The position numbers were made by a program, and so were the translations under genes. The notes under the pieces are model-generated. The model saw only the letters and a list, made by a program, of their open reading frames with translations. It was not told the DNA's origin and did no database searches. Below, piece after piece: positions 27-39,531 of a stretch of 49,109 nt of DNA (the first letter of the stretch is position 1; each line of letters begins with the position of its first letter). This stretch comes from a virus. Where the stretch lies: IMG/VR virus record IMGVR_UViG_3300037780_000133; one strand, given 5' to 3'.

Positions 27-45
27 CCGAACGGCGTTCGGTTTT
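27..45 (+). terminator. Hairpin CCGAACGGCGTTCGG plus TTTT after the last gene of the plus-strand operon (palindrome copy 1)
   Basis: A 6-7 bp stem followed by T4, starting 8 nt after the TAG stop at 17-19. The stem is short. Confidence 0.4.
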
Positions 46-84
46 AAATGAGAAGAATCAGGGGACTAGCTGAAATGCCTGACA

Positions 85-125
85 CCTTAGCAGGGGAGCG
101 CCTTCAGCCACTCGGCCACCTCTCC
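85..125 (-). other. 5' half of a tRNA-Ser(GCU)-like sequence, tRNA positions 1 to about 41; attP core candidate
   Basis: The minus strand reads GGAGAGG-TG-GCCGAGTGGCTGAAGGC-G-CTCCC-CTGCTAA-GG. This gives an acceptor 5' strand, U8, a D-arm with GG, and an anticodon stem and loop with GCU. The 3' stem strand, variable arm and T-arm are absent. Confidence 0.75.
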
Positions 126-181
126 GCAGAGCGGAAACCCCTAATAAACATGGGAATCATAGGCAAGAGGGTTTTGTCGGC

Positions 182-201
182 AATTGTCGCGAATTGTCGC
201 C
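182..201. repeat. Tandem 10-bp direct repeat ATTGTCGCGA / ATTGTCGCCA
   Basis: Read directly from the sequence. It lies about 60 bp from the tRNA fragment. Confidence 0.5.
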
Positions 202-227
202 AAATGACCGGAACAAACGTGGTATAT

Positions 228-260
228 GGGGAAGATCTGGGGAAGACTCGGGGAAAACAT
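228..260. repeat. Three phased 11-bp direct repeats: GGGGAAGATCT, GGGGAAGACTC, GGGGAAAACAT
   Basis: Read directly from the sequence. The period is one helical turn, and the region is non-coding next to the attP candidate. Confidence 0.55.
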
Positions 261-368
261 CCACGATTTGTTCCGTCGCCAGCTCCGGTTCCGAAGCGTC
301 TCGGAGTGAACGAACGGGCTGGAGAATTAACGCCGCGCAATTATAAGACCGGCAACCGGGAGATCTGC

Positions 369-719
369 ATGACCGAACCCTCGACTGACCCAAGCCCGCT
401 TTTCCTTCATGGCCTGATCAAGGCCGCGATGACATGCCTGACCCATCATCGCATCGAGCTGCGATCGCGCGCCGGCTACGACGCCACACTGTTTGAAGTT
501 CATTTCGCCTTGAGCGACCTTCAGGATTATCAGAAAGAAGGGGGCCAGGTCCCACCGTTCAACCTGATCGGCAAACATGGCGGCGCCCAATCGGCCGTGG
601 TCGACAATATCAACGGCACCCGGATCCAGGTTCACACAGAGGTGAAGGCAGGTCAGGCGTGGATCATGTATGACGGCGAAATCATCGAGACCGTTCAGCA
701 TCCGGCAGACTCAAACTGA
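369..719 (+). CDS. Hypothetical protein
   Basis: In-frame ATG at 369 preceded by GGGAG 8 nt upstream. The longer 48..719 reading would run through the tRNA fragment and the repeats. Confidence 0.4.
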   Translation: MTEPSTDPSPLFLHGLIKAAMTCLTHHRIELRSRAGYDATLFEVHFALSDLQDYQKEGGQVPPFNLIGKHGGAQSAVVDNINGTRIQVHTEVKAGQAWIMYDGEIIETVQHPADSN

Positions 720-768
720 TCGGCGATTCACCTCTTGCAAACTCATTTATTGTAACTACATTAAATGC

Positions 769-1044
769 ATGAGCGACACGCCAGAATACGAATGGGACGA
801 AGAAAAAAACCGCTCGAACCAGAAGAAGCATGGCGTCGCGTTCGAAGAGGCCTTCAAGTTTGATTGGGATACCTGCACCGAATTTGAAGACAACCGTTTC
901 GATTATGGCGAATTGAGATGGGTGGTTATCGGTCGAATTGGAGGTCAAATTTACACAATGTCGTACACGCTTCGCGGCGAAACCATCAGGGTGATCTCAC
1001 TGCGACGCGCAACGGCTCAAGAACGGAGAATTTATCATGGATAA
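769..1044 (+). CDS. brnT: BrnT-family (DUF497) ribonuclease toxin
   Basis: The N-terminus YEWDEEKNRSNQKKHGVAFEEA is typical of BrnT, and the protein is about 91 aa. It overlaps the downstream partner gene by 8 nt. Confidence 0.8.
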   Translation: MSDTPEYEWDEEKNRSNQKKHGVAFEEAFKFDWDTCTEFEDNRFDYGELRWVVIGRIGGQIYTMSYTLRGETIRVISLRRATAQERRIYHG

Positions 1045-1429
1045 GAGAAAGGCGAAAAAACCGGCTAGAAAACCGAAAAGCGGTGAATTCCTGCGCGTTC
1101 ATAATACCGGTCGATTGGTAGACGTTCAGAAAACGACGATTCAGGGAACGGCAAAATTGCCTCGCTCCGGTCCGGCTGGATCCTCAGTAGCATCTGCCCA
1201 CGATCCCGATAATCTTCCGATCACCGAAAAAGACATTGCCGACGGAAAGTTGGTCATGGTCCGCAAACGTGGCCGGCCAGTCGGTTCCAGGAAAACTCAA
1301 AAAACCGTTCGCCTGGACGACGACGTGATTGAGGCGTTGCAGGCAGATGGGACTGGCTGGCAGACCCGGATGAACGCGATCTTGCGAGAGGCGCTAAAAC
1401 TCGACAACAGCGACGCGAAGGCGAGCTGA
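1037..1429 (+). CDS. brnA: BrnA-family antitoxin
   Basis: The C-terminal motif VRLDDDVIEALQADGTGWQTRMNAILREAL matches the BrnA signature. The gene sits immediately downstream of BrnT and overlaps it. Confidence 0.8.
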   Translation: MDKRKAKKPARKPKSGEFLRVHNTGRLVDVQKTTIQGTAKLPRSGPAGSSVASAHDPDNLPITEKDIADGKLVMVRKRGRPVGSRKTQKTVRLDDDVIEALQADGTGWQTRMNAILREALKLDNSDAKAS

Positions 1430-1651
1430 TCAAGCGTGCTGGTCGAAATCGAGCATCAGTTGCTCAAACTCATCGTGCACCACCGCCGCCATGGCGATCA
1501 GCGCCTCGAGATCACGGTCTCCTGATTGAATATTCGCCTTCGCGTCGACCGCTTCGGCCATTGTTTTCACCGAATGTATCATCGCTCGAGTCCGGATTAA
1601 CCGAACGGACATTAAGGGTGTGACGTCCCTATCAATACTTGCTTTCGACAA
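1430..1651 (-). CDS. Hypothetical small protein; start uncertain (TTG at 1651, or internal ATGs)
   Basis: The ORF is convergent with brnA and lies downstream of an AT-rich divergent promoter region (1652-1826). Confidence 0.3.
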   Translation of the reverse strand: MSKASIDRDVTPLMSVRLIRTRAMIHSVKTMAEAVDAKANIQSGDRDLEALIAMAAVVHDEFEQLMLDFDQHA

Positions 1652-1826
1652 TGCTATTACCCACCATACTATACGTTCTGTATTATTAATGCGGACCGTC
1701 GAGAGTACGCATTTGTATTTTCGGCTTAGTTCAGTTGCAGAAGATTGTTGCTATATTTTTGAAACAAACTGAGCACGCGTATTGCACGAGTCAACATAGA
1801 CAATTTGTCTTTTTTAAGAGAACGGA

Positions 1827-2285
1827 ATGATTTCTGAAACGCTGTGTTGCAGGATGGCGATTATGGCTGAGTCTGTAAACTTTCCACCAGTGAGCGAGAT
1901 CTCTATATTCTCTACCATGGTCGAGACGCCCCAAATTTTTGATCAACAGCTGGGCACAGCAATTCGATCGGCGAGACGCGCGAAAGGTTGGAGCCAGGAG
2001 CGCCTGGCGGCGAGAGTGTCGATTTTGCGCGCGACGCTCGGATACTATGAACGAGGCGCTCGACCCATTCCTGCACGCACGCTCAATCGAATTGCAATCG
2101 CGTTGGACATCAAGCCAGGACATTTCTTTCGTGAAGCTGAAGCGACTGGCAGTGATGCAAACGGTGATGCAGCTGCCCGCAAACAACGCATTGAAGAGAT
2201 CAATCGAAAAATGGGACCGGACACAGCCCTAGTCACCCTCGATATGATCCTCCACATTCTCGATCTCTCCAGCCGATCCAAGTAG
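1827..2285 (+). CDS. XRE-family helix-turn-helix transcriptional regulator; start may be 1854, 1863 or 1917
   Basis: HTH segment QQLGTAIRSARRAKGWSQERLAARVSILRATLGYYERGARPIPARTLNRIAIAL. Confidence 0.7.
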   Translation: MISETLCCRMAIMAESVNFPPVSEISIFSTMVETPQIFDQQLGTAIRSARRAKGWSQERLAARVSILRATLGYYERGARPIPARTLNRIAIALDIKPGHFFREAEATGSDANGDAAARKQRIEEINRKMGPDTALVTLDMILHILDLSSRSK

Positions 2286-2591
2286 TTCAGCCGCATATAG
2301 GTCGAGTTCGGCCTGTCTTATCGCCGCGGCGATCCGTTCACGCAACTCTTCACTTGCCCCGATATCGGCCGTCGCCAGTTCTTCTATATGGACTAGCAGT
2401 TCCTGGATCTGCACAAGCGGATGCATCAGTCTATTCTCTCCGGAAAAACCAAGCGGCGTAGGCCTGCCACGTAAAATATACCGAAAGTCATGAGCGCCCA
2501 GAAATTTATCCGCATCGATATTTAATTTTTCTCTACTGAATTGACGTCCACGAAACTGAAAGAAGATTGAAAAAGGCGGGAATTCCACCAC
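2229..2591 (-). CDS. Hypothetical protein with an acidic helical C-terminus
   Basis: The ORF has a GTG start. Its 3' end overlaps the convergent XRE gene by 57 nt. A TGnTAAAAT extended -10-like element lies just upstream. Confidence 0.35.
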   Translation of the reverse strand: MVEFPPFSIFFQFRGRQFSREKLNIDADKFLGAHDFRYILRGRPTPLGFSGENRLMHPLVQIQELLVHIEELATADIGASEELRERIAAAIRQAELDLYAAELLGSAGEIENVEDHIEGD

Positions 2592-2630
2592 AGGTTCATT
2601 TTAGCACACGCTTCGCCTGGAAAGAACCCA

Positions 2631-2658
2631 AAGAAAAAACCCCGCCACAGGGGCGGGG
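2631..2658 (-). terminator. Rho-independent terminator ending the late/lysis operon
   Basis: The minus strand reads CCCCGCC-cctgt-GGCGGGG followed by TTTTTTCTTT, 30 nt after the stop at 2688. Confidence 0.75.
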
Positions 2659-2687
2659 CAAAATCGAACCGAATTCTGAGTGCGCGA

Positions 2688-3469: not shown

Positions 3470-3493
3470 TCACCAGCCCCGTGTGATTAAGGT

Positions 3494-4037: not shown

Positions 4038-4095
4038 AGTAAGTTTCCTTGTTTTGAGAAAACCAGCGTTTGGGACAGGCAGCCGGCGCGCCTGT

Positions 4096-4407
4096 TTAGT
4101 CTGACGGGTATGCCGGCAGATCTATCGTTTGCCCCCGCAGGTCATGGTGACAGTCCTGCAGGTAGCGAATGCGGCCGCCCTCCACGAAGAGATGGCAGCG
4201 GGATTGGGGGTGGTCCTTATTGACCAGGAGCGAGGGGCTGAATGTCGGTGCCGCCTCATCGCCATTGTACGACCATTTGGGCCGCGATGGATCCGTCGCC
4301 CGGATGATGTACGGGTGCGTCAGACCGCATCCAGGGCACAAAAAAAGGAGGTAAGTCTCCTCCTCATTTTCCAATTTGTAGAGATACTTCCCGACAGGCT
4401 CACCCAT
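4096..4407 (-). CDS. Cys/His-rich conserved phage protein, zinc-ribbon-like
   Basis: Contains CPGCG ... C ... CHH motifs. Its start overlaps the endolysin stop by one base. Confidence 0.5.
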   Translation of the reverse strand: MGEPVGKYLYKLENEEETYLLFLCPGCGLTHPYIIRATDPSRPKWSYNGDEAAPTFSPSLLVNKDHPQSRCHLFVEGGRIRYLQDCHHDLRGQTIDLPAYPSD

Positions 4408-4871
4408 CAGCGGCGCGTCCGCTCATACCTTCGCGCCCGGAAGTCCAGATGCACGAATGTGTGGTAAAAAATGATGCCGTTAAAGCCAAACCTGCGCGCA
4501 ACATTCGCGAGTGGCGCCTGAAACCCTTCGGGACAGGCCACATCAAACGCTGCGCCGGCGAGATGGCGCGATCGTTTCGCGCCGCCAATCTTGTGATTAT
4601 GCGCCGGCGACCGGTAAGCGCTGTTGATTGTCAGCGGTTGGCCAAGGTGGGATCGAACTTCCTGAAGCGCATCGATCGCCGGCGCGTACAGCATCAATAC
4701 GCCATCGGATTCGCTCGCTAGCTCTTCAGGTTTAAAGTTCGGCCAACGCCACAACTGATCCCACGACGCGTGGGTGTGATGCTCAGGCCCGATCGTGTCA
4801 CCTTCGCCAAGGATATCCCAGGATTGGCCATGCGCGCCGCGCTCGACGCGATCAATGCGATAGCTGGTCAT
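4407..4871 (-). CDS. Peptidase M15A-type (D-Ala-D-Ala carboxypeptidase-like) endolysin
   Basis: Motifs SAYRSPAHN, SRHLAGAAFDV and HLD match the zinc ligands of the M15 family. Confidence 0.8.
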   Translation of the reverse strand: MTSYRIDRVERGAHGQSWDILGEGDTIGPEHHTHASWDQLWRWPNFKPEELASESDGVLMLYAPAIDALQEVRSHLGQPLTINSAYRSPAHNHKIGGAKRSRHLAGAAFDVACPEGFQAPLANVARRFGFNGIIFYHTFVHLDFRARRYERTRR

Positions 4872-5173
4872 TTCTTCGCCTTTGATTTGGCCTTCGGCTT
4901 CGCCTTTGGTTTTGGACGGAACTGGAAGGTCTTAAAGCGAGACTGCAGGTCAATCCGAACGGCGTTCGCTTCCCCTGCAGAATTGCTGAAATTGTAGGTC
5001 TCGATCATCAAACAACACTCAAACAAAAGCCGCTTTTCAGCGGCCAGGAGTGTGTCTTTTGACTTCAGTTTTCGATACGTTCCCATCACGGCCCGGGCCG
5101 GGGAGTTTAGAAGCTCTGCATGCCGGGCTTCCTTGAGAAGAGGCATCAGCTTGTCTAGCGCCATCGGTTTCAT
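4868..5173 (-). CDS. Hypothetical protein with a Lys/Pro-rich C-terminal tail
   Basis: ATG at 5173 with GAGG 9 nt upstream. It has an ATGA overlap with the endolysin start. It contains palindrome copy 2. Confidence 0.45.
   Translation of the reverse strand: MKPMALDKLMPLLKEARHAELLNSPARAVMGTYRKLKSKDTLLAAEKRLLFECCLMIETYNFSNSAGEANAVRIDLQSRFKTFQFRPKPKAKPKAKSKAKK
4955..4969. promoter_or_regulatory. Palindrome copy 2, CCGAACGGCGTTCGc, nested inside a CTGCAGG/CCTGCAG inverted repeat (4943-4980)
   Basis: Read directly from the sequence. 14 of 15 bases match the consensus. Confidence 0.5.
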
Positions 5174-5183
5174 GGGCTTCGCC

Positions 5184-5420
5184 TCACCACTCTTCTTCGC
5201 ACATGAAAGGCGCATCTTTGCCGGGCGGGACGGCCACATATTGCGTGCACTTTTCCTGCTCATCATCGCTGTCTGCGAGATGGGCGATCACCAAGGCGCC
5301 GGCGACCGCAAACGCGGCGGCCACAAATTGAGTTTCGCGGTCAATTTCCACGCCTTGAACTTTGATTGTTTGACAGCCAGGCAGCATCAATGCCAGCCCG
5401 GCGAGGGCAGCTCTAATCAT
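5184..5420 (-). CDS. Lipoprotein downstream of the tail genes
   Basis: Signal peptide with lipobox LALMLPG|C. GGAGAAATAGG ribosome-binding site upstream. Confidence 0.55.
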   Translation of the reverse strand: MIRAALAGLALMLPGCQTIKVQGVEIDRETQFVAAAFAVAGALVIAHLADSDDEQEKCTQYVAVPPGKDAPFMCEEEW

Positions 5421-5436
5421 CCTATTTCTCCAGTGA

Positions 5437-8400
5437 TTATGTGATGTTGTTAGCGTTTTCCCGATGCACGGTCAGTCTCATTCCAGACCAAATATTGGGA
5501 TTGAGGATTGCGACGAAATCTGCCGGCGGCTTCGGACTCGTGCGAGTTGTTGCGAAAAAGATCTGATAAGTGCGATTGACGGGGTTAGCCGGCGTACCGC
5601 CAGGATCATCATCTACCACGCGGAACGTGCCGCCGAATGAACGACTTGTCCCTGTTTCGGCATCGGCCCGCAGCACAGCAACATGACTGCCCTGCGAGAT
5701 GATCTTCGTTCCTTCCACGCGCCGAATGAGCGCAGAAACTGTCAGCTCCGGTGCTTCGGACGACGTATTTGGCGCGCCCTCACCGAAAAACGCTGTGAAC
5801 ATGATCTCCACCGGAGAGCCGTCACAACTCACAGTCGCGAAGGCCTTTTCGCGGTAGATATTGTCGACACCGCAGACCTGATCAGATGCATTCACGTTGA
5901 ACTCTGAATTGGTGTATCCAATTCCGCTCGTGGCGACGATGAAGTTTGCGTAAGCACGATCGGACGCGGCGTCTTCACTCGCGAGATCCCCTTGTCCGAT
6001 AAAGCCGGCTGCGATGTTCACGGCCGTTCGATCGGCATCAAGAGATCCGGTATAAAGCGCACCGCCCGTGTATCGCAGCAATCCGGACGAATTTGCGGTC
6101 GCGACCGGTATCGGTCGGGCCAGATCTCCAGATGCGTCGAGCCCAGCGCCGACTCGCCCATCAACCAGCTCGAGAGGCGTACCAATGATGTTGCCCCAAT
6201 CGACGCTCCCCGTGGTGCCGGCCGCACCATCTGGCACAGCAACGTCGCGGACTTCGTAGGCCGTTCCGATCTCGCCGCGGCGGCCGCGATAGAACATCTG
6301 AACGTCCATGTCGACGCCAGGAGGCACCCCACGAATGGTGAATCGCCCTTTGATGGCGGGTATATTGGTCACCGGCGTGTAGTCAGGCTGTGACGCATCA
6401 GGCAATCGAACGTCGCTGACATCCTTCGCAACAACCCGCGCCTCAATCACCGCTTCCTGGATGGCGATATCGTCATCCGGATCCCACGTGACTTCAATCA
6501 CGGGATTGATCACGCCATTCGAGCCAGTTTCGGTTCCGCCGACCGCGGCGAAGTTATTCGCGAATGGCAGGACGTCAGCGACCGTGATATATGGCGTTTC
6601 CATCACCGGGCTTGTTCGACCCGTCACAGCCACTGTCTGGAACCGATAGACGATGCGCTGACCTACTTGACCTGGAGCATCGATCAATTGGCGAACCTCC
6701 GGCCCGAGCGATGGCAGCTGCTCGAAGACCGACAGCGCGTCGGGATCCGGATCGTCGTCTGGCGCAGCATAAGCCCGCCACACGCGAATTTCGCGCAAAG
6801 GCTGCGGATACCCCTCCGGCACAGTGAAGGTGACCGTAATCTTGAAGTTGCTCGCCTCGGCGCTGACAAAGACCGGCGTGGGCGGGCTCGACCCCAACGG
6901 TAAGACCGGCTCAATCGCATAAGGCGGAATGACGGATCCGGTCTCGTCAAATCGGGCAGGTGCATAGGACTTGAGGCTGAGACGGATCCATTCGTCGCCG
7001 GCATCTTCTGCGGTCTCGAGCAAACCCTCAAACAGGTCAGTGCCAATAGGGCCGATGATATAGTCTGCGCCGGCGACAGGGCCACCAGCTTCCGCGACCG
7101 GTGTGTCGAGCGTTGCCGTTGCACTCAACCCATCGGATCCAGGAATTACGAGCGGCGCAGGATCTGATAGCGTTCCATCGCTGTTGACCCATTTGAGAGC
7201 CAGTCCCGGATAGCTGGGCCCCTGATTGAGTTCCTGATCAAGTTCTACCTCAGTCACCTGACCCGAACTTGTGGTTATGCCCCTAAGAATGCCAGATCCC
7301 TGAACCTGTGTGATCACACGGCTCGCCACGGAAATGCGGCCCATGGGACGAAGCGTATTGTCGAGACTGTCTTTTGGAACCTCTAAATTCGTGGTTTCGC
7401 TCTGCAGCCGCGAGTTTCGGTAGAGCTGCAGGATGGCGCGATGCAGGTCGTCCCAGTCTGTTTTCCCGGGAATCGAAATGCGCTCGAACTTTGTCGCGGT
7501 AGCTTTAGTGAACCCGTCGACGTAGATCGTGACCTCGCGCGTGCGCCAACCATTATTGGCATCGTTGAAGGTGACGATGAAGGCGTGCACTTCTTCCGGA
7601 AATGACTTGGTGGAAGAAATGTTTCGCGCTGTTCCATCTCGGAATACGTGCGATGGGGCTGGGATGGGGCGGTCAACGCCCGCGGTCCAAATGTTGTTGT
7701 ACGAATAAATCCGGCCCTCGCCACCCGAGCTGGCGACCAGGTTGCCCAAATCACCAACTGTCACATTTTGTCTGACGACATAATCGAACTTCAAGCCGCG
7801 ATCGCGCGCATCCTTGGCGGCGGCCGCAAAGCTGGGCCAATCGAAACCATCGTCGGTTACCGCTTCGCGGGCATTGAAGCCGTTGCGCATGATCCACAGC
7901 GATTGCTCCCACGGATTAGAGCTGACTTTGGTGACACTCAAATCAGCGGCGGTGACGCCGCTTAAATCCGCCTGATCGAGAACAGAATCCGGAAACGCGG
8001 GGATCCAGCGACCGACAACCATGTTCAGCTCATCGATTGCGCCGCTCGTTTCGTCCGTACCTTTGAAACGATAAACCTCATAGGCGACATCGTCGCGGTT
8101 TATGACCGGCTCATCGCGCTTGGAGAGAATTGTTTGCCAGACAATATCATCGAATTCACGCGCATCGTTTGAATCTGGACTGATGCGCAGAACCTCGACT
8201 TCGTACGTGCCCTCACTCGGAAAGGAAAATCCGACCTGGCGGAAGAATGGCTGCGCCGGCTTCGCCTCAACAAAGCGGAACGACGCCGATGTGCCAAAGT
8301 TTGGATCTCCGCCAATGCCGCCACCACTCAGTGCCAGCAGGTTTTCGAACCCTCGAAACTCCGGGTAAATCGCGTTCGTTCGAGCTGACGCAAATCGCCA

Positions 8401-25120: not shown

Positions 25121-25130
25121 GGGGGCTCCA

Positions 25131-25176
25131 AGACAAGAAAAAGCCGTCCCGGCTCACGAAATCGGAAGCCGGGACG
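25131..25176 (-). terminator. Strong intrinsic terminator immediately upstream of the portal start
   Basis: The minus strand reads CGTCCCGGCT-12 nt-AGCCGGGACG followed by GCTTTTTCTTGTCTT. The portal ribosome-binding site and ATG follow. Confidence 0.7.
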
Positions 25177-26011
25177 CAGGGACGCTCGGGAGGAACTCGA
25201 GCGATCCGAAATTCGACGGACAGGCCGGAAGTTCAGGCGACCCGCCTGTCCGCGATCGCTCATCGCGTCGCCAAACTGGCGATGGCGCGCGAGGCAGATC
25301 GATTGAAAAAGGTACGCCCAAGCCGGAACGTAATGACCGACCCGGATAGGTCAGCGAGAAACCGGGCTTGGGCGCGGCGATGACGGTCACACGCAAGTCA
25401 AAGACTGGGGGAGACGAGGGAAAATTACTTAGAAAACCCCGTCCGGGACGCCATCACCTCCGCTTTCAGGCTATTATGGCCCTATGGCAGATTTGAAAAA
25501 GTTGGGGCTCACCCTGCGCTGCCAGCGTCTGCTTGGCGGGCGAGCCCCGTTCTTAACGGGGGCAACAGCACGGCGTGACCGACCCGCCTCAGCGCAAGAG
25601 ACAGTTGCCGGATCGGCCTCACGTTCGTTTTGGTTTCCCGGTCACCCGGTCTCCTCAACTTGATCTGGCGCCGTCCCAACCGGGCTATCTCGCGGATCAA
25701 GTGCAGAGCGCCTTGCGAGCTAACTCTGACCCCCTCTCGGGTATTTTGAATGGGGCTGGCCCGCCTGCATGTACGAACCAGCCCCGGCCAGTGCGAGTAG
25801 AGTAAGCGCTGGCAAACTGAAATTATCGAGCGAGTTGGTCGATCAACTCCAACTGGGCCACCTTCCCAGCTCCACCGATCGGCAGTCGGTTTCTACGCCT
25901 GCATGTCTCCGATTTTCCACGCTGTCGCTCAAGCGCATGATGGCAATTCCCGTTACTTCACGCAACATAACCAACGGTCCCCCGCGGGCACTTTACATGC
26001 GATCTCCAAAA
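25177..26011 (-). ncRNA. ORF-free, hairpin-dense segment; candidate large structured RNA or other non-coding element. The strand is inferred from the flanking terminators.
   Basis: No convincing ORF in any of the six frames. There are at least 10 perfect 6-10 bp stems, and the segment is bracketed by two minus-strand terminator-like hairpins. Confidence 0.3.
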
Positions 26012-26026
26012 CCGAACGCCGTTCGG
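26008..26026 (-). terminator. Hairpin CCGAACGGCGTTCGG plus TTTT directly after the gpW stop (palindrome copy 3)
   Basis: The same 19-mer as at 27-45, but on the minus strand. It begins 1 nt after the TAA at 26028-26030. Confidence 0.4.
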
Positions 26027-26027
26027 A

Positions 26028-26261
26028 TTACAATCCTACCCGGATCCCGCCGTCCCGCGGAGCGTTGGCGCAGCCGCAATCCCGCGCCTCTTGTTCCAGG
26101 TCGCGGAGCTGCCGGCGAATTTCGTCGGGCGATGCGATATGGAAGCGGGCTTTGCTGCCGGCATATCCCGTCTCTTCAAGCACTTTTCCAGTCGACATAG
26201 CGGTCAATCGCGCTTTCAGAGCAGCGATGTCAGCCTCTATTTCGGTGCAAGATCTGGCCAT
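26028..26261 (-). CDS. Head-tail joining protein, gpW-like
   Basis: A 77-aa protein immediately downstream of the GpA terminase with a 1-nt overlap, as in lambda. Confidence 0.65.
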   Translation of the reverse strand: MARSCTEIEADIAALKARLTAMSTGKVLEETGYAGSKARFHIASPDEIRRQLRDLEQEARDCGCANAPRDGGIRVGL

Positions 26262-28438
26262 CAGCTAGTCCCTCCGTGTCCATGTTTGCGACCGAGTTCC
26301 TCGAGCCGGCGTTTGTCTTCATCGCTCAACCCTTCGGGCTTCGCGTCATCTTCTGCATCGGCCGGCGCTGCAGATCCACTCCACAGTTTCTCCAACCCAC
26401 CAGCACCGGCAAGCGTAGGGTCTTCCTCCGGTAAAACTGAGGCATATACGTCAGCCCAGCGTTCAAAATCCCAAGTGTCGATTTGAAGCGAGCACGCGGC
26501 GGCCAAATTGTAGACACCAAGATCCAGCGCCTCGTTCGGCTGTCCGCTAATCTTTACCCATTCGCCATATGGCTTTTTCGGGTCGCTGAAACTGAGTTTC
26601 TCCGCAGTGAGCTGTTTCGCTTCTTCCTCAGTTAGGTCACCTGGAAACAGGATAGCTCGCGACGGCAGGGACTTGCCTTTTTCGGCTCGCAAACCATCGC
26701 CCATTCCGCCGTAAAACCTGCCTTTCAAGGTGTGGCCGCCGACTTGTAGCGGTACGATTTTTGACACGGTCCGCTTGTTGATTTTGACCTTCTTCGGCGT
26801 CGACTGCGTGACCGCGGGCGCTTCGTGAGAATTTCGCCCTTTGGCCCCGAAAATCGCAAACACGCCTTCGGCCATGCGACCACGGCAGTACGCGTAGACT
26901 TCCTGCGTCCAGTTACCCGAGTCGACGAAACAGCGAGATGGCGCAGCCGCCTTGAACGCGGGCCCCGACCAGGTTTGTTTGCGCTGCGCGTCAAGATCTT
27001 TCCAAACCTGCAGTTTGGTTGGGTCGCCGGGCAGGATGCCTTTGGCCACCCTGAACCCGACTCCCCCGCGGCCCCAGGCGTAAACCGCCCATTCTAGACG
27101 GTTCACCTGGACGTCGACGGCCATGGTCAGCACCGCGCAGAATGGCGGCACTGTACCTTCTTCCCATACACGACCAGAGGCCTCGAGCAACGCTGCTACC
27201 TCGGGACGGTCAACAATTCCGTCGAAAGGCAAGCCAAGCGTTTGCTGAAAGAACACCTTGGCTTCAAAACGCCCCTCAACGACCTCTCGCCATTCGCGCC
27301 AGATCACGTTCCAGGCAATTTGCGGGTTCATGGCCTGCCAGATCTGGAAACTCGCCGGCCGGCCCTCGCAGTTTCTTGGGCTCACCCATCGGCGCCCCTC
27401 ACGACGGAACGCCCATCGATCGATCTCGTCGGCTGGAATGATCTCGGGTGGCTGCGGATTGTCTTCCCGATCGCTCGGGAAATACGGAACCCATCGGCCC
27501 TGTTGGATCATGTCATGGCGCTGGTAACTCTCAGCGAGCGCGCCGCAGCCCTGGTTCTCCTGTTCGGGCCCGGATGCCTTGCAGTAGAACCCAACAGTTT
27601 GGTCCGGATCCTCAGGGGTCGGACCGACCATATTTTCAAACTTTAGCGCGCTGAAATCGCCGCAATGTGGACATGGCACCACATATTGAGCCTGATCGCC
27701 TGCTTCAAATTCAGCGGTAACGCGGCACCCGCCGGCCTCTCCCTTCAGCGCCTTCTTTCCAGGCGTGGACGGAATGACCAGTTTGAATTCAGGTCCAAAA
27801 AACGTGCCGCGCTTACGGGCCTGGTCAATCGGGTGGCCGCGATTGTCGACGTCGTCATCGTACTCAGTCGCCTCTTCGGCCACAATGAAGCCAATCGAGA
27901 CCATTTGCAGCGGCTTCGAGGTGCCGGCGGAGTCGATAATCGCAAAACCACCAGGGAACCGCTTGAAGGATCCAGTCGACTTTTCGGAAGTTCGCCCGGT
28001 CTGGCTCGCGATCTTCCGCGTGATTTGCGGCGAGGCCTGCACAGTCGCGTCAAATTTGACCTTGTTGTATTTTTTCGCCTCGTCAGTCGACGGAAGCAAA
28101 TACAACATTGAACACGGCGACTGATCGACACGCGATAGGCCTGCATTCAGAGCGCATTCTGACTTTCCGGTTTGAGCGGATCCTCGGATTGTTACCGTTT
28201 GCACAGGATCTTCCGGGCCCATGCGATCCATCGGCACCTTCAGATAGGGCAAAAGGTCATTCGACCATTGCCCGGGCTTCGGGGATCCAGATTCAGCGCT
28301 AACGAAGCGATACTTCGCCGCCCATTCGTGAACCAGGAGCGGCTCTTCTACCGGCGCTTCCTCCGCGATCGCGCCGCCAACGACTGCGAATGCTGACGCG
28401 AGGCCAGTGAAGGTTTTCCGCAGCTCCTCCGGCGTCAT
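26261..28438 (-). CDS. Terminase large subunit, GpA family
   Basis: A 725-aa protein with Walker A-like GSAQTGKSE, and the size and layout typical of lambda gpA. Confidence 0.9.
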   Translation of the reverse strand: MTPEELRKTFTGLASAFAVVGGAIAEEAPVEEPLLVHEWAAKYRFVSAESGSPKPGQWSNDLLPYLKVPMDRMGPEDPVQTVTIRGSAQTGKSECALNAGLSRVDQSPCSMLYLLPSTDEAKKYNKVKFDATVQASPQITRKIASQTGRTSEKSTGSFKRFPGGFAIIDSAGTSKPLQMVSIGFIVAEEATEYDDDVDNRGHPIDQARKRGTFFGPEFKLVIPSTPGKKALKGEAGGCRVTAEFEAGDQAQYVVPCPHCGDFSALKFENMVGPTPEDPDQTVGFYCKASGPEQENQGCGALAESYQRHDMIQQGRWVPYFPSDREDNPQPPEIIPADEIDRWAFRREGRRWVSPRNCEGRPASFQIWQAMNPQIAWNVIWREWREVVEGRFEAKVFFQQTLGLPFDGIVDRPEVAALLEASGRVWEEGTVPPFCAVLTMAVDVQVNRLEWAVYAWGRGGVGFRVAKGILPGDPTKLQVWKDLDAQRKQTWSGPAFKAAAPSRCFVDSGNWTQEVYAYCRGRMAEGVFAIFGAKGRNSHEAPAVTQSTPKKVKINKRTVSKIVPLQVGGHTLKGRFYGGMGDGLRAEKGKSLPSRAILFPGDLTEEEAKQLTAEKLSFSDPKKPYGEWVKISGQPNEALDLGVYNLAAACSLQIDTWDFERWADVYASVLPEEDPTLAGAGGLEKLWSGSAAPADAEDDAKPEGLSDEDKRRLEELGRKHGHGGTS

Positions 28439-30278: not shown

Positions 30279-31449
30279 GACCACCCTCCGATGTCTGGGC
30301 CTCGTCTTCGGCGACATCGTCCCGTCGAACAGTGATCTGATATCCGTCAAATCCAAGGTCCTGAAGATTATCGACCAGCTTTGAGCCAATGATTTCGTGC
30401 AGCCTACCAACGTGCTCACCATCGGTGGCTGCGATCACCAGGCATTGTTCGATTTGCCAAACCCTGCACCCGAGCAAGGCCTCGCCGATATGAGCCCGCC
30501 ATTTGCCACTCCCGCCTAGACGGGCGGCGAGGTACTGAGCGCTGATCGATCTGAAGAATGGCAGGTCCGCCTGAGCACGATCCCCCTGAACCGCCATGCC
30601 GGAGTTTCCGCCTGGCAGTGACGGTTGCGATTTTGTCCACAGACTGGCGTCGCGTGCGCGTTTTTGAATCCCTTGGGGTGAATCATCCTTATAATGGTCC
30701 GTGGACAAAATGTCCGAGTAAGCGGACAAAATGTCCGAGTTAGCGTCCAGAAAACCTTTTTGCGGTCCTTCTTTTTCCACAGCCGAAGGGGCGAGCATTT
30801 CAACCCTGTCTTCAAACTGCAGCGCCGTGAGTTCACTCGCATGATCAAGGATCCGAGACGGCCAACCATCGAAGGCCGCAACAAGCCCGCTCTGACAGGC
30901 CTCTATCTCACGCGCCGCCTGGAACTCCTGTTCAGCCAAAAGTGCCCCCTGAAGCGCTGCGATGACGGCCGCACAATTCTCAGCAGTGGCTGGGGCGCCG
31001 ATCAGGTTTCGGCGCTCGAGCGCGCGTGCGGCGCCGGCCCCAATGCGCCGACGCGTGATCATGAGCCCACGAGCAAGCCACTGCAGGCGCTCCCAGTGGA
31101 CACGAAACAAACGCGCGTCATACGGCCCGCCGCGGCGAGCGTCGAGGTCGAGCACCAAATGCTGCAAGTCATCGCCAGACCAGGCCTCTAGAGCCCGTCG
31201 AAAGGATCTGCCGTCTTGACGTGCGACGATGCGAAGGCCGGCGAGAGAGCACGCAGAATACCCCGTCTGCGCATCGGTGAACATTGCCAGCGCCCCAAGC
31301 CAGCCCGCCCGCCCGGATGGCTCCAAGACGGCGTTTTGGGCGTTCAGCAACAACCGAACGCCGTTCGTTTTTTCGGATATACGTTTCCCGCTCACGGAAA
31401 CCCCCATGTTAAAAAAATTGGCCGAAGAATTGTGGACGCGGCGCCCCAT
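30265..31449 (-). CDS. Hypothetical protein containing internal iteron-like repeats; replication-initiator candidate. Start uncertain (31449, 31407 or 31284).
   Basis: A long ORF with no strong ribosome-binding site at any candidate start. Palindrome copy 4 lies in its 5' region. Confidence 0.4.
   Translation of the reverse strand: MGRRVHNSSANFFNMGVSVSGKRISEKTNGVRLLLNAQNAVLEPSGRAGWLGALAMFTDAQTGYSACSLAGLRIVARQDGRSFRRALEAWSGDDLQHLVLDLDARRGGPYDARLFRVHWERLQWLARGLMITRRRIGAGAARALERRNLIGAPATAENCAAVIAALQGALLAEQEFQAAREIEACQSGLVAAFDGWPSRILDHASELTALQFEDRVEMLAPSAVEKEGPQKGFLDANSDILSAYSDILSTDHYKDDSPQGIQKRARDASLWTKSQPSLPGGNSGMAVQGDRAQADLPFFRSISAQYLAARLGGSGKWRAHIGEALLGCRVWQIEQCLVIAATDGEHVGRLHEIIGSKLVDNLQDLGFDGYQITVRRDDVAEDEAQTSEGGHVET
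30703..30740. repeat. Two tandem 17-bp repeats, GGACAAAATGTCCGAGT, with 21-bp period; each contains the palindrome GGACA-AAA-TGTCC
   Basis: Read directly: 30703-30719 and 30724-30740. Confidence 0.7.
31354..31367. promoter_or_regulatory. Palindrome copy 4, CCGAACGCCGTTCG, followed by T6, with degenerate GGCGTT(C) half-sites at 31331-31346
   Basis: Read directly from the sequence. Confidence 0.5.
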
Positions 31450-31480
31450 ATTGCCCGCGTCGAGGATGCGGGGCTTGAAC

Positions 31481-31687: not shown

Positions 31688-31688
31688 C

Positions 31689-35482: not shown

Positions 35483-35484
35483 CG

Positions 35485-35877: not shown

Positions 35878-35905
35878 TCATTCCTCCTATGGATTGAAAC
35901 CCGCC

Positions 35906-36544: not shown

Positions 36545-37233
36545 CCGACCCTCCGCAATTTGCAGGGGCCGGGGGGATTACAGGTCAGCCGGCGATGCAC
36601 GAAAGGCCCGCTCGGCTCGCGCTCCCAACGATACCAGGCGTGCAGACGGGTCTGATTATTCGTGGGGCCTTCATACTCATCGCGATGCATTCGAAGGCGT
36701 TCACGAAACGGGAAATAGCCCGTGAAGTTCGGGCCATCCATCAGCTGGTCGCGATACTCACAGCGATTACCGCCCTGCTGAAAACCAAGCTCGAGCAGCA
36801 TGTAAACGCGAGGCGCCAGTTCAAGCGCATGGGCCACAAATCGAGCCGCTTTGCTGCCTAAGTCTTTCTCTCCGCCATAGGGCGGATTGGTTACCACTGC
36901 GAATTCGCGACTGCCGATCGTTTCAGATAGCACTGATGGGCTGTAATCGAAGAAGTTCACGTTCCAGGTCGGCGCCTGCAGGCCTTTCCCTGGCTTGCCC
37001 TTCCAACGAAGCTCGTACTGGTTGAGGTCGCTGGAGATGACCACGTGCCCTGCCGACTGCAGAGAAGCAGTGATCGCGCCGGGTCCACATGCAGGTTCCA
37101 AAATGAGCCGGCTTCCGGAACGAAGCCACGGATCTGCAGCGATTAAGGCGTGAACGGCTTCACGCGGCGTCTCATAGAGTTGGGCGTCATCATCGCCGTA
37201 ATTGTTTGCCCCGAGGTGGATGATCTTGGTCAT
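36541..37233 (-). CDS. N6-adenine (gamma-class order) DNA methyltransferase; orphan
   Basis: Motif I, ILEPACGPG, precedes motif IV, VVTNPPYGG. No endonuclease gene is nearby. Confidence 0.75.
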   Translation of the reverse strand: MTKIIHLGANNYGDDDAQLYETPREAVHALIAADPWLRSGSRLILEPACGPGAITASLQSAGHVVISSDLNQYELRWKGKPGKGLQAPTWNVNFFDYSPSVLSETIGSREFAVVTNPPYGGEKDLGSKAARFVAHALELAPRVYMLLELGFQQGGNRCEYRDQLMDGPNFTGYFPFRERLRMHRDEYEGPTNNQTRLHAWYRWEREPSGPFVHRRLTCNPPGPCKLRRVG

Positions 37234-37484
37234 GCCTTACCTCGCGACATGGCTTCGGCGCTCTGGCGTATGGCATCGAATGCTGACGCGGGCATTTCGT
37301 TGATGGCCTCGTCGACGGAAGGCGCCGTTGCGCCTCTCATCGAGAACTCAATCTGCTTGAAAGGCCGCTCGCGATACTGACGAGCGCGGATCTTGCCCTG
37401 ATCCCGACGCCGGCAACCATTTTCACGGGCGCATTCGTAAGGCCACGCGCAATCGCTGCAAAATGTCCCAGATCCCGACATCAC
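37230..37484 (-). CDS. Hypothetical Cys-rich small protein
   Basis: An ORF with 4-nt overlaps on both sides. Confidence 0.4.
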   Translation of the reverse strand: MMSGSGTFCSDCAWPYECARENGCRRRDQGKIRARQYRERPFKQIEFSMRGATAPSVDEAINEMPASAFDAIRQSAEAMSRGKA

Positions 37485-37918
37485 TGCGCCTCCAGATCGG
37501 CGGCTAGAGCGCTGAGAACCTGTTGGGAGTCATGGATGGCCTTTTGGATCTCGCGCTTTTCGGACTTGGAGATTTTCCCATCCTTCAGCGCATCCATGAT
37601 TTCTGCCGCCAGATCAGCGCTCTCGCGAACAGTGTTGGCCGCATGATCGAACCAGCTCAGTCGCGGACCCTCGAAATGTTCAATGGCCCCCTCATAGTGA
37701 TCCAGGATCGGCGTACCGCCGCCGGCATCGAAGCAGGCCTGATCCAACTTGATCGCGTCATCCAGGCGCAACATTTCAGAGCGGTTTGGATTGGCCGCGT
37801 GCGGGATCGTGTATCGATCTCGACCGATAGCAAGCGAAGCGTTTGAGAGACCGCCCAACGGCTTGGCTGCTCGCTCTATCGCCGCTTTCAATGAGTTGGG
37901 AGCTTTACGCGTCGTCAT
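37481..37918 (-). CDS. CII-like regulatory protein (candidate)
   Basis: ATG at 37918. The C-terminal DGKISKSEKREIQKAI helix pattern resembles the phage CII/CP76 family, but recognition is weak. Confidence 0.35.
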   Translation of the reverse strand: MTTRKAPNSLKAAIERAAKPLGGLSNASLAIGRDRYTIPHAANPNRSEMLRLDDAIKLDQACFDAGGGTPILDHYEGAIEHFEGPRLSWFDHAANTVRESADLAAEIMDALKDGKISKSEKREIQKAIHDSQQVLSALAADLEAQ

Positions 37919-38228
37919 TGGCCACCCCACTTCGTCGAAAAAACGATGCAGTGAGGGGTGGCTTGCAATACGCGATGAAACCCCAAGCACAGACCAGCAT
38001 GACTGGTGGGCCGCCCAGAGCCACAATCATCGTTACGGTCCAAACCAATGCTGCAATCAGCAACCACGCACCAAGCACCCAATGCAGATACTTCGTCTTC
38101 GTGACGGGTGGACGGATAATCATAATGATGGCGGTGATGAGCAAGCAGAACAGTCCAACCTGCCACCAGTAAAACCCGCTATCAGCGTACACACGCCAAT
38201 AGGCGGTGAGAAAATTGAATAGATTCAT
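37905..38228 (-). CDS. Membrane protein with 3-4 TM segments, co-transcribed with the HTH regulator
   Basis: ATGA overlap with the upstream regulator. Long hydrophobic segments are present. Confidence 0.5.
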   Translation of the reverse strand: MNLFNFLTAYWRVYADSGFYWWQVGLFCLLITAIIMIIRPPVTKTKYLHWVLGAWLLIAALVWTVTMIVALGGPPVMLVCAWGFIAYCKPPLTASFFRRSGVANDDA

Positions 38229-38506
38229 GCAGCTACCCCACTTTGATTTGGCAATTGGGGTAGAGAAAGCTGTGTGCCCGGGGCATTTTTCTCGGCATGC
38301 TCTCGCGCATCTTCTTCTACCCACTTCTTCAACAGATCATCGAAGCTCAGTCCGGTAACGCGCCGCATCCGAATCAGTACTGGCACGGATGGCAGTGCAT
38401 TCTCGCGTCTGAGGGCGACAAAAAAGCCACGAGAAATACCAAGCATTTCAGAAGCTTGCGTATCGTTCACGCCTTTGGCTGATTTCCAATCATCGAGAAT
38501 CGTCAT
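38225..38506 (-). CDS. HTH regulator of the immunity switch; Cro-like by its direction towards the lytic genes
   Basis: HTH segment DTQASEMLGISRGFFVALRRENALPS. It is divergent from a second HTH gene and has no SD upstream. Confidence 0.7.
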   Translation of the reverse strand: MTILDDWKSAKGVNDTQASEMLGISRGFFVALRRENALPSVPVLIRMRRVTGLSFDDLLKKWVEEDAREHAEKNAPGTQLSLPQLPNQSGVAA

Positions 38507-38522
38507 GTCGTTTGTAATATCA

Positions 38523-38564
38523 CACCAACATTTTCCGACAAGAAAATTGTTGGTGTCACCAACA
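38523..38564. promoter_or_regulatory. Operator cluster of the divergent switch region: CACCAACA (38523-30) and the 8-1-8 palindrome TGTTGGTG-T-CACCAACA (38548-64)
   Basis: Read directly. The sites lie in the 91-bp gap between the two divergent HTH genes and overlap candidate -35/-10 spacers. Confidence 0.6.
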
Positions 38565-38597
38565 GCGCGTGATTTCGCGCTGTGGCAATGTGCTCAC

Positions 38598-38948
38598 ATG
38601 AATAAGTTCGAACCACCGGAGTTGCACCTGGCGGCCTGGCGCAAAAATGCGGGCCTCACCCAAGAGCAACTTGCTCACAAGATTGGATACTCGCGTGGCC
38701 ACATCGCTAACTCTGAAGTTCAAACGACCAACGTGACTCTTCAGTTTCTGACCGCATACGCAGAAGGGGTGTCAGCTCCGAGCGTGCCTGCGCTATTCTC
38801 AAAGCCGGACGCCTTCAATCCAACATTGGCCAAACTGCAACAATACTTCTTGCAGATCGAGCAACCCGAACAACGCGATGCTGTCGTAAACGTAGCCAAG
38901 GGACTTAGTGAGCAATATGCCGGAGCCGCAATCGAAACTGAACAGTGA
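38598..38948 (+). CDS. XRE-family HTH regulator; CI-like candidate
   Basis: HTH segment AGLTQEQLAHKIGYSRGHIANSE. The ATG has no SD and sits about 8 nt after a -10-like GGCAAT. Confidence 0.75.
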   Translation: MNKFEPPELHLAAWRKNAGLTQEQLAHKIGYSRGHIANSEVQTTNVTLQFLTAYAEGVSAPSVPALFSKPDAFNPTLAKLQQYFLQIEQPEQRDAVVNVAKGLSEQYAGAAIETEQ

Positions 38949-39231
38949 GGCGGAACAAAGCGAAGAAACTGACGTGTCCAGTCTCGGAGTGTTGGGCGTT
39001 GTCCTGATGATTATCGGGACTTGCATATTGGGCTGGCATTTCTTCACTTCACCGGAAGTGATCGCGTACAAAAATGTCGATCCGGCGTTTACTGATGGAT
39101 TGGAAAGCTATGGGTTTGAGCGTGAAATGTTACGCGCGAGCTGGGCTTTATTTCTTGCACCAATCATAATCATCACAGGTGCAATATTTACTGCTGCGGG
39201 ATGCGTCGTGGCCGCAATTGGTAAGCGGTAA
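38917..39231 (+). CDS. Two-TM membrane protein in a locally AT-richer segment
   Basis: Two hydrophobic helices. The composition is visibly more AT-rich than the surrounding genome. An alternative GTG start lies at 38908. Confidence 0.5.
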   Translation: MPEPQSKLNSEAEQSEETDVSSLGVLGVVLMIIGTCILGWHFFTSPEVIAYKNVDPAFTDGLESYGFEREMLRASWALFLAPIIIITGAIFTAAGCVVAAIGKR

Positions 39232-39298
39232 GACAACACCGAATCTCCTACGATTTGTAGTCTGTGAAGTAACAATTTTGCCGGATAGGCAAAATAAA

Positions 39299-39339
39299 TT
39301 GTTGCTGTAATCAACATTTTTTTCTTGAAATTGTTGGTG
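39299..39339. promoter_or_regulatory. Second operator/promoter region: TTGTTGCTG (39299-307) and GAAATTGTTGGTG (39327-39)
   Basis: The string GAAA(A)TTGTTGGTG also occurs at 38542-38555. The site lies between -35-like and -10-like hexamers upstream of the ParB-like gene. Confidence 0.5.
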
Positions 39340-39399
39340 AGAGATGACAATAGGTCTCCTCACAGGAGAAACTGCATGTCTCACTCATCGCCAGATAAA

Positions 39400-39413
39400 C
39401 CGAACGCCGTTCG
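39400..39413. promoter_or_regulatory. Palindrome copy 5, CCGAACGCCGTTCG, in the leader of the ParB-like operon
   Basis: Read directly from the sequence. Confidence 0.5.
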
Positions 39414-39531
39414 CTTTGCGCAGGCTGAGCTGCCGAATTTTCCAATTCGCCGTGGTGACCGATCGGGATCCGCACGTCTGCCCGCAAGGGCCGCTTAAGC
39501 AGAGGCGGGGCCGGGCATTCCGTCGATAAGA

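Follow-up and report, generated by a model that had tools for sequence, protein, structure and literature searches.

What reads a short palindrome that recurs unaltered at five distant points of a temperate phage genome, and what does this reading do for the phage? The question is raised by IMG/VR virus record IMGVR_UViG_3300037780_000133, a stretch of 49,109 nucleotides (nt) that was analysed at its full length and is called the window throughout. Both ends of the window share 127 bp (positions 1-127 equal 48983-49109), which points to a circular assembly of 48,982 bp; because of this identity, features in the first 127 bases appear twice, and the copy of the palindrome at 49009 is not an independent one. 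By Pfam and PHROG searches the genome is of the lambda-like temperate type, and the phage encodes an integrase. The palindrome is under selection at the level of DNA, is conserved in position and is specific to phages, and comparison of loci shows it to be tied to one subfamily of recognition helices among ParB-like proteins. It seems likely (at a probability of about 0.72) that the phage's own ParB-like protein, an orphan, loads onto DNA at these palindromes as its cognate sites, probably for element-wide control of transcription.

The five copies, each with its position in the window and its surroundings, are as follows (ORF, open reading frame; aa, amino acids; CTD, C-terminal domain).

27..41 (seen again at 49009..49023): site 1, also site C, CCGAACGGCGTTCGG, a perfect 15-mer, 8 nt past the stop codon of an alpha-CTD-like gene and ~45 nt from the candidate attachment (att) core
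4955..4969: site 2, CCGAACGGCGTTCGC, within ORF 4868-5266 (minus strand), where it codes for ANAVR, 84-98 nt upstream of the endolysin ATG
26012..26026: site 3, a perfect 15-mer, starting 1 nt past the gpW stop codon, at the edge of a stretch of ~900 nt that is free of ORFs and precedes the portal gene
31354..31368: site 4, also site A, reading ACGAACGGCGTTCGG on the minus strand, at codons 10-14 of the 30265-31395 gene as counted from its conserved GTG start
39400..39414: site 5, also site B, CCGAACGCCGTTCGC, 24 nt past the ATG of a 40-aa ORF and 132 nt upstream of the ATG of the ParB-like gene

A preliminary description of this DNA had reported five copies at these places, a 14-mer (CCGAACGSCGTTCG) that is the same in all of them and two perfect 15-mers, all of which was confirmed. 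Its estimate that the 14-mer should occur far less than once by chance was upheld as well, since 100 dinucleotide-preserving shuffles of the window gave no match at all, versus five real copies. The perfect 7-1-7 15-mer is found at sites 1 and 3 only, both of which read CCGAACGGCGTTCGGTTTT on the locally transcribed strand, with TTTT coming next on that strand. A search of the window for degenerate copies (the 13-mer with up to two mismatches) gave one extra match, which is within chance expectation. The described placement at gene boundaries holds with some refinement: site 1 lies 8 nt past its gene and site 3 1 nt past gpW, and sites 2 and 5 are located inside ORFs (4868-5266 and the 40-aa ORF, respectively). 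The copies that had been placed about 90 nt upstream of the endolysin start (84-98 nt as measured), in the leader of the ParB-like/MucR operon (site 5) and in the 5' region of an iteron-containing gene (site 4) are indeed found there, and the remark that only some copies are followed by a T-tract is borne out, in that position and T-tract fit at sites 1 and 3 only.

The anatomy of the site was derived from 71 distinct copies in loci that had not been chosen by the motif. Their consensus is (A-rich)-S-CGAACG-S-CGTTCG-S-(T-rich), where S is G or C, with the 13-mer CGAACG-S-CGTTCG (in the window CGAACGSCGTTCG) as its conserved core. The 6-bp arms show neither variation nor compensatory change in any of the 71 sites, whose source phages have GC contents of 55-71%. 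At the centre, 68 of 70 sites have G or C, which gives a 6-1-6 architecture with a central S, while positions ±7 are G or C, complementary in 44 of the 71 sites and unpaired in the other 27. Because the arms are invariant without compensatory change, and because the base type at ±7 is kept without pairing, recognition by a protein is indicated rather than formation of a hairpin. The flanks are symmetric (A-rich upstream, T-rich downstream); the idea that a central G followed by a T-tract marks the orientation of a terminator was rejected on account of this symmetry, the A-tract of sites A and B being a lysine codon. When the sites are read with the ParB-like gene on the plus strand, the central base is C in 46 and G in 22 of 70, a strand bias that is unexpected for a symmetric site.

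A scan of viral contigs with the perfect 15-mer returned 120 loci, 36 of which hold at least two perfect 13-mers. Two contigs of 69% GC carry 12 and 14 perfect 13-mers, compared to ~0.004 expected from composition (own calculation), and in these contigs the site is either intergenic or read in all three frames (as RTPFG, PNGVR or ERRS).

Six relatives of the window phage were fetched through the ParB-like protein (45-94% identity), all of them prophage loci, and the palindrome is found at matching places in these six while the flanks diverge. The position of site A is kept in L124, L125, L126, L128, L129 and L414, that of site B in L124-L129, and that of site C in L124, L125, L126 and L128; in prophage L414 a palindrome also takes the position of site 3, starting 3 nt past the gpW stop codon. 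The search of relatives for positional conservation that the preliminary description had proposed thus shows sites A, B, C and the post-gpW site to be kept in diverged prophages. The close relatives reside in metagenome-assembled alphaproteobacterial genomes, and the names attached to homologues are Henriciella (Hyphomonadaceae) for the large terminase subunit (TerL) and Maricaulis, Caulobacterales and Phenylobacterium for the ParB-like protein. Among cultured phages no match at the DNA level was obtained by megablast with 24 kb of the window, and a TerL protein search gave distant matches only (at most 34% identity) and thereby no annotated relative. A literature search on the literal site sequence returned nothing but primer coincidences.

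Three of these loci (L124, L125 and L414) stem from a single contig (ERZ25074389 ctg15134, ~3.53-3.60 Mb) of a 3.7-Mb alphaproteobacterial genome, which holds two related prophages ~48 kb apart, one beside lptCAB-rpoN and the other beside a luxI/luxR pair. Their ParB-like proteins are 45% identical and their palindromes are of one type; if the specificity of the two proteins is shared, this could lead to cross-regulation between the two prophages.

Host DNA gave a different picture. In ~26 kb of host flanks of six prophage loci no copy of the palindrome was found, the sites being confined to the prophage part. A scan of a genome collection gave at least 120 matches over many phyla, scattered, with at most two per genome and a median GC content of 65%, and none of the matches listed lies beside homologues of terminase, portal or ParB. 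A host-wide repeat of the repetitive extragenic palindromic (REP) kind, named at the outset as the finding that would undo a regulatory reading, was not seen among those listed matches or in the host flanks. Signatures of insertion are also missing at the palindrome, the 13 bp being embedded in frame within homologous genes.

The candidate reader of the palindrome is encoded directly downstream of site 5, and its main features are the following (HTH, helix-turn-helix).

39532..41574, plus strand: orphan ParB-like protein of 680 aa, the proposed reader (Pfam ParB_N, E 6.6e-14; Spo0J, ParB and Noc by sequence)
40024..40044, plus strand: GERRWRA motif, residues 165-171, the nucleotide-binding GxxR box of ParB CTPases
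residues 206-212 of the same protein: ENRQRED box, which aligns to Spo0J and ParB
40279..40329, plus strand: predicted HTH recognition helix GLTERWAQIRVNMVRRL, residues 250-266

All comparative loci were at most 22 kb long. Among loci chosen by the motif, 10 of the 36 with several sites have a ParB-like gene versus one of the 84 with a single site, and some multi-site loci without a local ParB-like gene (such as L021 and L055, on the contig of L335) come from contigs that do encode one. A search of viral contigs with the single ParB-like sequence gave only three distant loci; since a first broad ParB alignment proved too diverse for the design of a pattern, a narrower alignment was then used for a profile. 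With this profile, i.e. without any use of the motif, 80 viral loci with a ParB-like gene were fetched, 17 of which have at least one perfect 13-mer and 13 at least two. All 17 encode a recognition helix of a single subfamily, [ST]-x-R-[FWYH]-V-Q-x-R-L-x-L-[VA]-x-x-L, to which the helix of the window protein belongs. The motif is present in 17 of the 23 loci of this helix subfamily versus none of 56 others (Fisher p ~1e-12), and the contrast with the other helices (0/21) is maintained when only loci with a GC content of at least 0.60 are considered (p ~1.6e-7). Moreover, when sites were predicted from helix type alone for four homologues of only 23-31% identity (including Caulobacterales, Maricaulis maris and Phenylobacterium), perfect sites were found in all four and only in the prophage part of the loci, whereas three loci with a different helix had none. 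A site lies within -1000 to +300 nt of the start of the ParB N-domain in 19 of 26 loci, against ~19% expected from site density by our own estimate.

The site also varies together with the helix. The window-type palindrome GCGAACGGCGTTCGC has two natural symmetric variants in other phages, CGAATGSCATTCG and CGAACCnGGTTCG. L340, with helix K-R-T-V-E-M-R, carries four dispersed copies of CGAATGSCATTCG (at 1863, 4926, 9127 and 13868); L342, with helix T-R-T-V-Q-K-R, carries one CGAATGSCATTCG site and a hybrid, CGAACGCCATTCG, 126 nt from the ParB match (at 2120 and 9875); and L358, with helix Q-R-H-I-Q-Q-R (R-H-I type), carries two copies of CGAACCnGGTTCG (at 4872 and 8970). L415 is likewise among the loci with variant or hybrid palindromes (positions 6804 and 16305). 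In a reverse scan for CGAATG, only ParB genes of the R-T-V type were found to adjoin the variant, on the same two contigs, so that neither a counter-example nor a new ParB-linked lineage emerged; one new multi-site contig was obtained, which is too short to include the ParB gene. Together, these variants suggest that site specificity diversifies within the phage family (CGAACG, CGAATG, CGAACC). A separate subfamily of ParB-like helices has a palindrome of its own, GTGCAGACGTCTGCAC; its helix reads S-[YF]-[IV]-Y-x-R-L-K-L-C-A (L344-L411), and the palindrome, written (G)TGCAGACGTCTGCA(C), is present in 9 of 22 loci, usually once per locus. Arg254 taken by itself as the mark of the motif-bearing proteins was discarded, as the subfamily with RFVQ[DE]RIKLN has the arginine and no sites.

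The predicted structure of the ParB-like protein (AlphaFold, mean pLDDT 83.8) consists of a MarR-like winged helix (residues 16-73), a disordered linker, a ParB N-domain (106-232) and an HTH domain (238-303), followed by a C-terminal region of ~380 aa for which Foldseek gave no structural match. N-domain and HTH superimpose on structures of Noc, KorB-KorA, Spo0J and ParB-parS, with target TM-scores of 0.6-0.65 in Foldseek; Noc is the top match (7nfu, E 5e-9) and KorB-KorA (8qa9) reaches 0.64, KorB being detectably no closer to the phage protein than Noc or Spo0J. Of the nucleotide-binding box, G165, R167, R168 and A171 are invariant across homologues, and E166 and R170 in one alignment (A3) only; Pfam HTH_ParB is present in the homologues. 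The N-terminal domain varies among motif-bearing ParB-like proteins or is absent, as in L118, where the locus still has three sites, while the ParB HTH is conserved. The gene is located in the cI-int lysogeny module. In ten relatives, the genes called over ±10 kb include no ParA-type Pfam family, and the ParA-interaction motif LG[KR]GL was not found in the N-terminus of the protein.

The surroundings of the sites bear on what such a protein might do, and involve the following features.

39324..39354, plus strand: promoter-like block CTTGAAA-N17-CAATAG, conserved in an alignment with six relatives, preceding the small ORF and the ParB operon
39376..39498, plus strand: small ORF of 40 aa that holds site 5
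4407-4871: M15 endolysin (Pfam/PHROG)
26261-28438, minus strand: large terminase of the GpA type, then a gpW-like ORF and the portal gene
38274-38948: cI-like HTH protein (Pfam/PHROG)
41571-41960: Ros/MucR gene, directly downstream of the ParB-like gene (Pfam/PHROG)
48381-49001: last gene of the integrase-side operon, like the RNA-polymerase alpha CTD (PF03118, E 1e-7)
49067..49109 (equal to 85-127), minus strand: partial tRNA-Ser-like sequence GCGGAGAGGTGGCCGAGTGGCTGAAGGCGCTCCCCTGCTAAGG, a candidate att core that adjoins site 1

Site 5 lies ~46 nt downstream of the block at 39324..39354, which was not flagged by a strict sigma-70 scan and is a putative promoter. The small ORF around the site has 40 aa in the window, 16 aa in L127 (near 3720) and 118 aa in L125 (9586-9942), L126, L128 and L129, and is conserved only in its first ~13 codons (M-x6-K-P-N-A-V-R), i.e. 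where it overlaps site B; what is kept here appears to be the DNA site and not the protein. Site A is found in relatives at codons 10-14 of a gene of 351-401 aa, just past a conserved ribosome-binding site (RBS) and GTG start. Sites A and B both lie just downstream of promoter-like or RBS blocks; a consensus scan for promoters was uninformative. Next to site 4, 6 nt downstream, stands a third half-site, CTGAACGCC (31339-31347, minus strand), which with the right arm of the palindrome forms a steadier alternative hairpin (-19 kcal/mol). It is present in L126 and missing from L125, L128 and L129; this could be an arrangement of three half-sites or a coincidence.

Site 2 is hosted by an ORF (4868-5266) whose stop codon overlaps the endolysin ATG. 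It forms the loop of a larger inverted repeat, CTGCAGG...CCTGCAG (4942-4981), the fold of which has a z-score of -3.25, with none of 200 shuffles folding equally well. In distant phages the palindrome is found at the 3' end of terL or just beyond it, in two frames or past the stop codon; as a mark of the whole TerL family this position was ruled out, being occupied in 3 of 80 unbiased TerL loci. Between site 3 and the portal start, ~900 nt (25121-26011) contain no convincing ORF and have no Rfam match, as indeed no family was found in the whole window at the Rfam gathering threshold. The equivalent gap measures 575 nt in L414, and in L415 it is taken up by a gene for a Dam-type methyltransferase along with two or three small ORFs. 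The region looks like a hot spot where genes come and go, or it may contain a non-coding element that has escaped recognition.

At site 1, the GCGGAGAGGTGGCCGAGTGGCTGAAGGCGCTCCCCTGCTAAGG block is conserved right past site C in L125, L126 and L128. It presumably resembles the 5' half of tRNA-Ser(GCU) up to the anticodon loop (as judged by the E. coli tRNA-Ser), and is probably the att core; ARAGORN detected no complete tRNA in the window or in the fetched prophage loci. The alpha-CTD-like gene that precedes site 1 is kept in relatives (L124 18029-18643, L125 17324-17980, L128 17844-18506). A phage-borne mimic of the alpha CTD is unusual and might disturb host transcription.

Following the proposed reading, a dimer of the ParB-like protein would recognise S-CGAACG-S-CGTTCG-S via the HTH behind its N-domain, with one half-site per monomer. 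On the model of ParB, Noc, KorB and BisD, binding of the site would make the N-domains close into a clamp in a nucleotide-dependent manner, and the closed clamp would slide onto neighbouring DNA. From five loading sites over 49 kb (12-14 in the GC-rich relatives), protein might thereby come to lie on much of the phage or prophage DNA, and the site just upstream of the ParB operon would probably allow autoregulation. The likeliest outcome would be control of transcription across the element, either silencing, as by KorB, or activation, as by BisD; transcriptional control is favoured because the gene is part of the cI-int module and because sites A and B stand at the start of transcription units. 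For the former reason, a role in establishing the prophage or in keeping it quiet is favoured as well. It is by analogy that the protein is inferred to bind the sites, to depend on a nucleotide, to slide and to affect expression. The preliminary description had proposed a dimeric regulator and a second circuit, apart from the immunity operators. To this the comparative evidence adds a link between the site and a protein, with the ParB-like protein as the candidate, whereas the regulatory role of the palindrome is, as before, an inferred one.

Several observations weigh against this reading or restrict it. The support for a link between site and protein is entirely comparative, and related phages are not independent samples. 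With loci of the size used here, a ParB gene or further sites elsewhere on a contig lie beyond view. No single residue accounts for specificity, the arginine at position 3 of the helix being present in a site-less subfamily too, and the co-variation of helix and site comes from a small number of lineages (CGAATG from two contigs, CGAACC from one). Three members of the helix subfamily (L345, L346 and L348) have no repeated site within ~15-19 kb. The enrichment at gene boundaries is modest (16 of 26 versus 41% expected, p = 0.03, with crude gene calls), and the repeated placement at the terL 3' end, which only 3 of 80 loci selected by TerL without the motif show, is a feature of a subset. As to CTP being the nucleotide, some ParB folds bind ATP or GTP, according to a 2025 survey (PMC12704722).

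Even if the ParB-like protein does bind the palindromes, the array could serve to organise DNA, through compaction, positioning or partition of genomes that are replicating or have been excised, shielding against nucleases or defence systems of the host, or the guiding of modification or packaging. In the GC-rich relatives there is about one site per 3-4 kb, many of them deep inside genes, which suits coating better than promoter-specific control, and the site recurs at the terL 3' end or past gpW, beside packaging genes. According to work cited in PMC6536676, phage ParB-like proteins have been suggested to direct DNA modification during packaging, and the 380-aa C-terminal domain, being without a structural match, leaves room for an activity of this kind. 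However, partition in the style of a plasmid is improbable for phages that integrate (as integrase and att core indicate) and that have no ParA-type partner within ±10 kb in relatives, and the gene itself is part of the cI-int module, away from the terminase, in contrast to the described ParB-Tls loci. The geometry of sites A and B, just inside the first genes of apparent transcription units and after promoter-like sequence, suits regulation instead, and an organising role, though a serious rival, is considered rather unlikely. It is still less likely that the palindrome is the operator of another dimeric protein, be it the cI-like HTH protein, MucR/Ros, a CP76-like or alpha-CTD-like protein, the winged helix of the ParB-like protein itself, or a host factor. 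The window does encode several more DNA-binding proteins, the link to ParB is a correlation, which could also stem from common descent of an entire gene module, and the half-site CGAAC is like that of Gram-positive LexA. Yet no other window protein is present in more than 5 of 21 motif-positive loci (MucR in none, the cI-like and alpha-CTD-like proteins in at most one), and the HTH, RHH (ribbon-helix-helix) and MucR proteins that had been listed as possible readers show no co-occurrence with the motif outside this phage family. The winged helix is variable or absent (L118) where the ParB HTH is conserved. For a host protein, the variation of the site together with the ParB helix would be unexpected. 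Sites were not found in ~26 kb of host flanks or near host genes among the listed genome-scan matches. The LexA (Cheo/DinR) box is CGAAC-N4-GTTCG, with a spacer of 4 nt, against 3 nt (G-S-C) in all copies of the palindrome.

Readings at the level of RNA, or of a passive repeat, fare worse. That the palindromes are intrinsic terminators, or hairpins for processing or attenuation that punctuate long operons, is suggested by sites 1 and 3, which directly follow stop codons and precede TTTT on the transcribed strand, by the hairpin in the context of site 1 (-11.3 kcal/mol, z = -2.2) and by the flagging of sites 4 and 5 as minimal (bottom-tier) terminator-like matches. The stem, however, has only 5-6 pairs with a loop of 3 nt, against 7-8 GC-rich pairs in the convincing terminators of the window; in the contexts of sites 3 and 4 the palindrome hairpin plays no part in the best fold, site 4 scores on both strands, and the score of site 5 is confined to the strand antisense to the ParB-like gene. 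In relatives the majority of copies fall within genes and use every frame, and there is no Rfam match. The stem is also invariant in phages of 55-71% GC, lacks compensatory substitutions and leaves ±7 unpaired in 27 of 71 sites, so that terminator function is insufficient to account for the exact conservation, as had been argued from the outset, and is highly improbable as the explanation. An RNA processing site, or a tiny mobile palindromic element, had also been offered as alternatives; neither finds support. It is barely conceivable, finally, that the phages carry passively a REP-like or miniature mobile host repeat, or that a peptide motif is what is conserved. REP elements typically contain short GC-rich palindromes, but the genome matches (at least 120, across many phyla, at most two per genome) were never beside phage genes among those listed, the sites are confined to the prophage part of loci, and insertion signatures are lacking. 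The peptide xN(A/G)VR can be read in one frame at three window sites; it was rejected as the conserved entity, since all three frames as well as intergenic, non-coding positions are used.

Loading by the ParB-like protein, then, is the preferred reading, and it can be compared with four known systems and with canonical ParABS. KorB is a ParB-family sliding clamp that silences genes at long range on the IncP-1 plasmid RK2 (PMC11790492). The phage system resembles it in that the protein is of the ParB family and has the GxxR nucleotide switch, the palindrome spans 13 bp in a 6-1-6 arrangement around a central S, and the copies are dispersed (in RK2 ~12 on 50-60 kb, some at promoters and some far off or in genes; here five, and 12 and 14 in relatives). 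The O_B site of KorB likewise spans 13 bp, with 6-bp arms on either side of a G or C (TTTAGCSGCTAAA). The phage site is unrelated to it in sequence, however, and is carried by a temperate phage that integrates, not by a plasmid. The phage protein is twice as long as KorB, with the extra N-terminal winged helix and the unmatched C-terminal region of 380 aa. An IncC/ParA partner was not found, and KorA or TrbA were not evident in the Pfam tables, no search aimed at homologues of the latter two having been made.

BisD of ICEclc, an integrative and conjugative element (ICE), is a ParB-like CTP clamp that loads at bisS sites inside genes, spreads over ~50 kb and controls promoters of the element (PMC12409273). 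Both are orphan ParB-like proteins on integrated mobile elements, with palindromic sites in genes and an extra domain beyond the canonical ParB. The two bisS sites (GAGCTATCCCCnGGGGATAGCTC) are 2 kb apart, whereas the phages have 5-14 dispersed sites; BisD is an activator with a partner, BisC, and belongs to an ICE, not a phage, and neither BisC nor the BisD-specific domain was identified here. Phage N15 has SopB and four dispersed inverted-repeat (IR) centromere sites, IR1-4 (PMC7205306). N15 and the window phage are both lambdoid and temperate, and each combines a protein of the ParB family with a short palindrome in several scattered copies. The IR sites of N15 lie near regulatory regions and affect expression. 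N15 differs in that its prophage is a linear plasmid, has SopA (ParA) as a partner and uses the sites for partition, while the window phage integrates and lacks ParA; the site sequences are unrelated (GTGCGACCnnGGTCGCAC in N15).

Noc of Bacillus is a ParB-family CTPase without a ParA partner, with many dispersed palindromic Noc-binding sites (NBS; 10.1101/2022.02.28.481274). The lack of ParA and the dispersed short palindromes are shared with the phage system, and Noc is the top structural match. It has ~70 sites in 4 Mb. In contrast to the phage protein, Noc is chromosomal, tethers DNA to the membrane via an N-terminal amphipathic helix and blocks cell division, and no such helix or function is indicated here. 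With canonical ParABS (including P1 ParB-parS) are shared the motifs of the N-domain, the HTH fold, a palindrome beside the parB gene and a dimer that would read two half-sites; ParA and LG[KR]GL are not, the phage sites are dispersed rather than clustered, and the 13-mer of the window differs from canonical parS, TGTTNCACGTGAAACA (PMC12409273). The phage system is distinct from KorB, BisD, N15 and Noc, in that it combines an integrating phage, no ParA or recognisable partner, extra domains, an unrelated site and natural variants of specificity.

Nucleotide-switch ParB clamps have recently been shown to act in long-range gene control on a plasmid (KorB) and on an ICE (BisD). About 1% of ParB homologues reside on prophages, and the 2025 survey has left the orphan ones uncharacterised (PMC12704722). 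The present comparison pairs one phage ParB subfamily with a precise 13-bp site, which is dispersed, conserved in position, imposed on coding sequence and accompanied by natural variants of specificity. Such pairs of site and protein could serve as orthogonal tools for DNA labelling or silencing. A more far-reaching possibility, to be taken as tentative and rather doubtful, is that of an undescribed and widespread group of integrating alphaproteobacterial phages, in which an orphan ParB clamp with 5-14 or more sites, set into genes in any of the frames, would coat the entire prophage and exert a second, CI-independent control of lysogeny (by silencing, insulation from the host chromosome or protection from defence), with a specificity that would have diversified against cross-talk. 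The pairing supplies defined DNA probes as well as predicted ChIP peaks and residues for a switch of specificity, and makes testable what a ParB clamp does for an integrating phage, and, if the clamp silences or insulates the prophage, this would constitute a new layer of lysogeny control.

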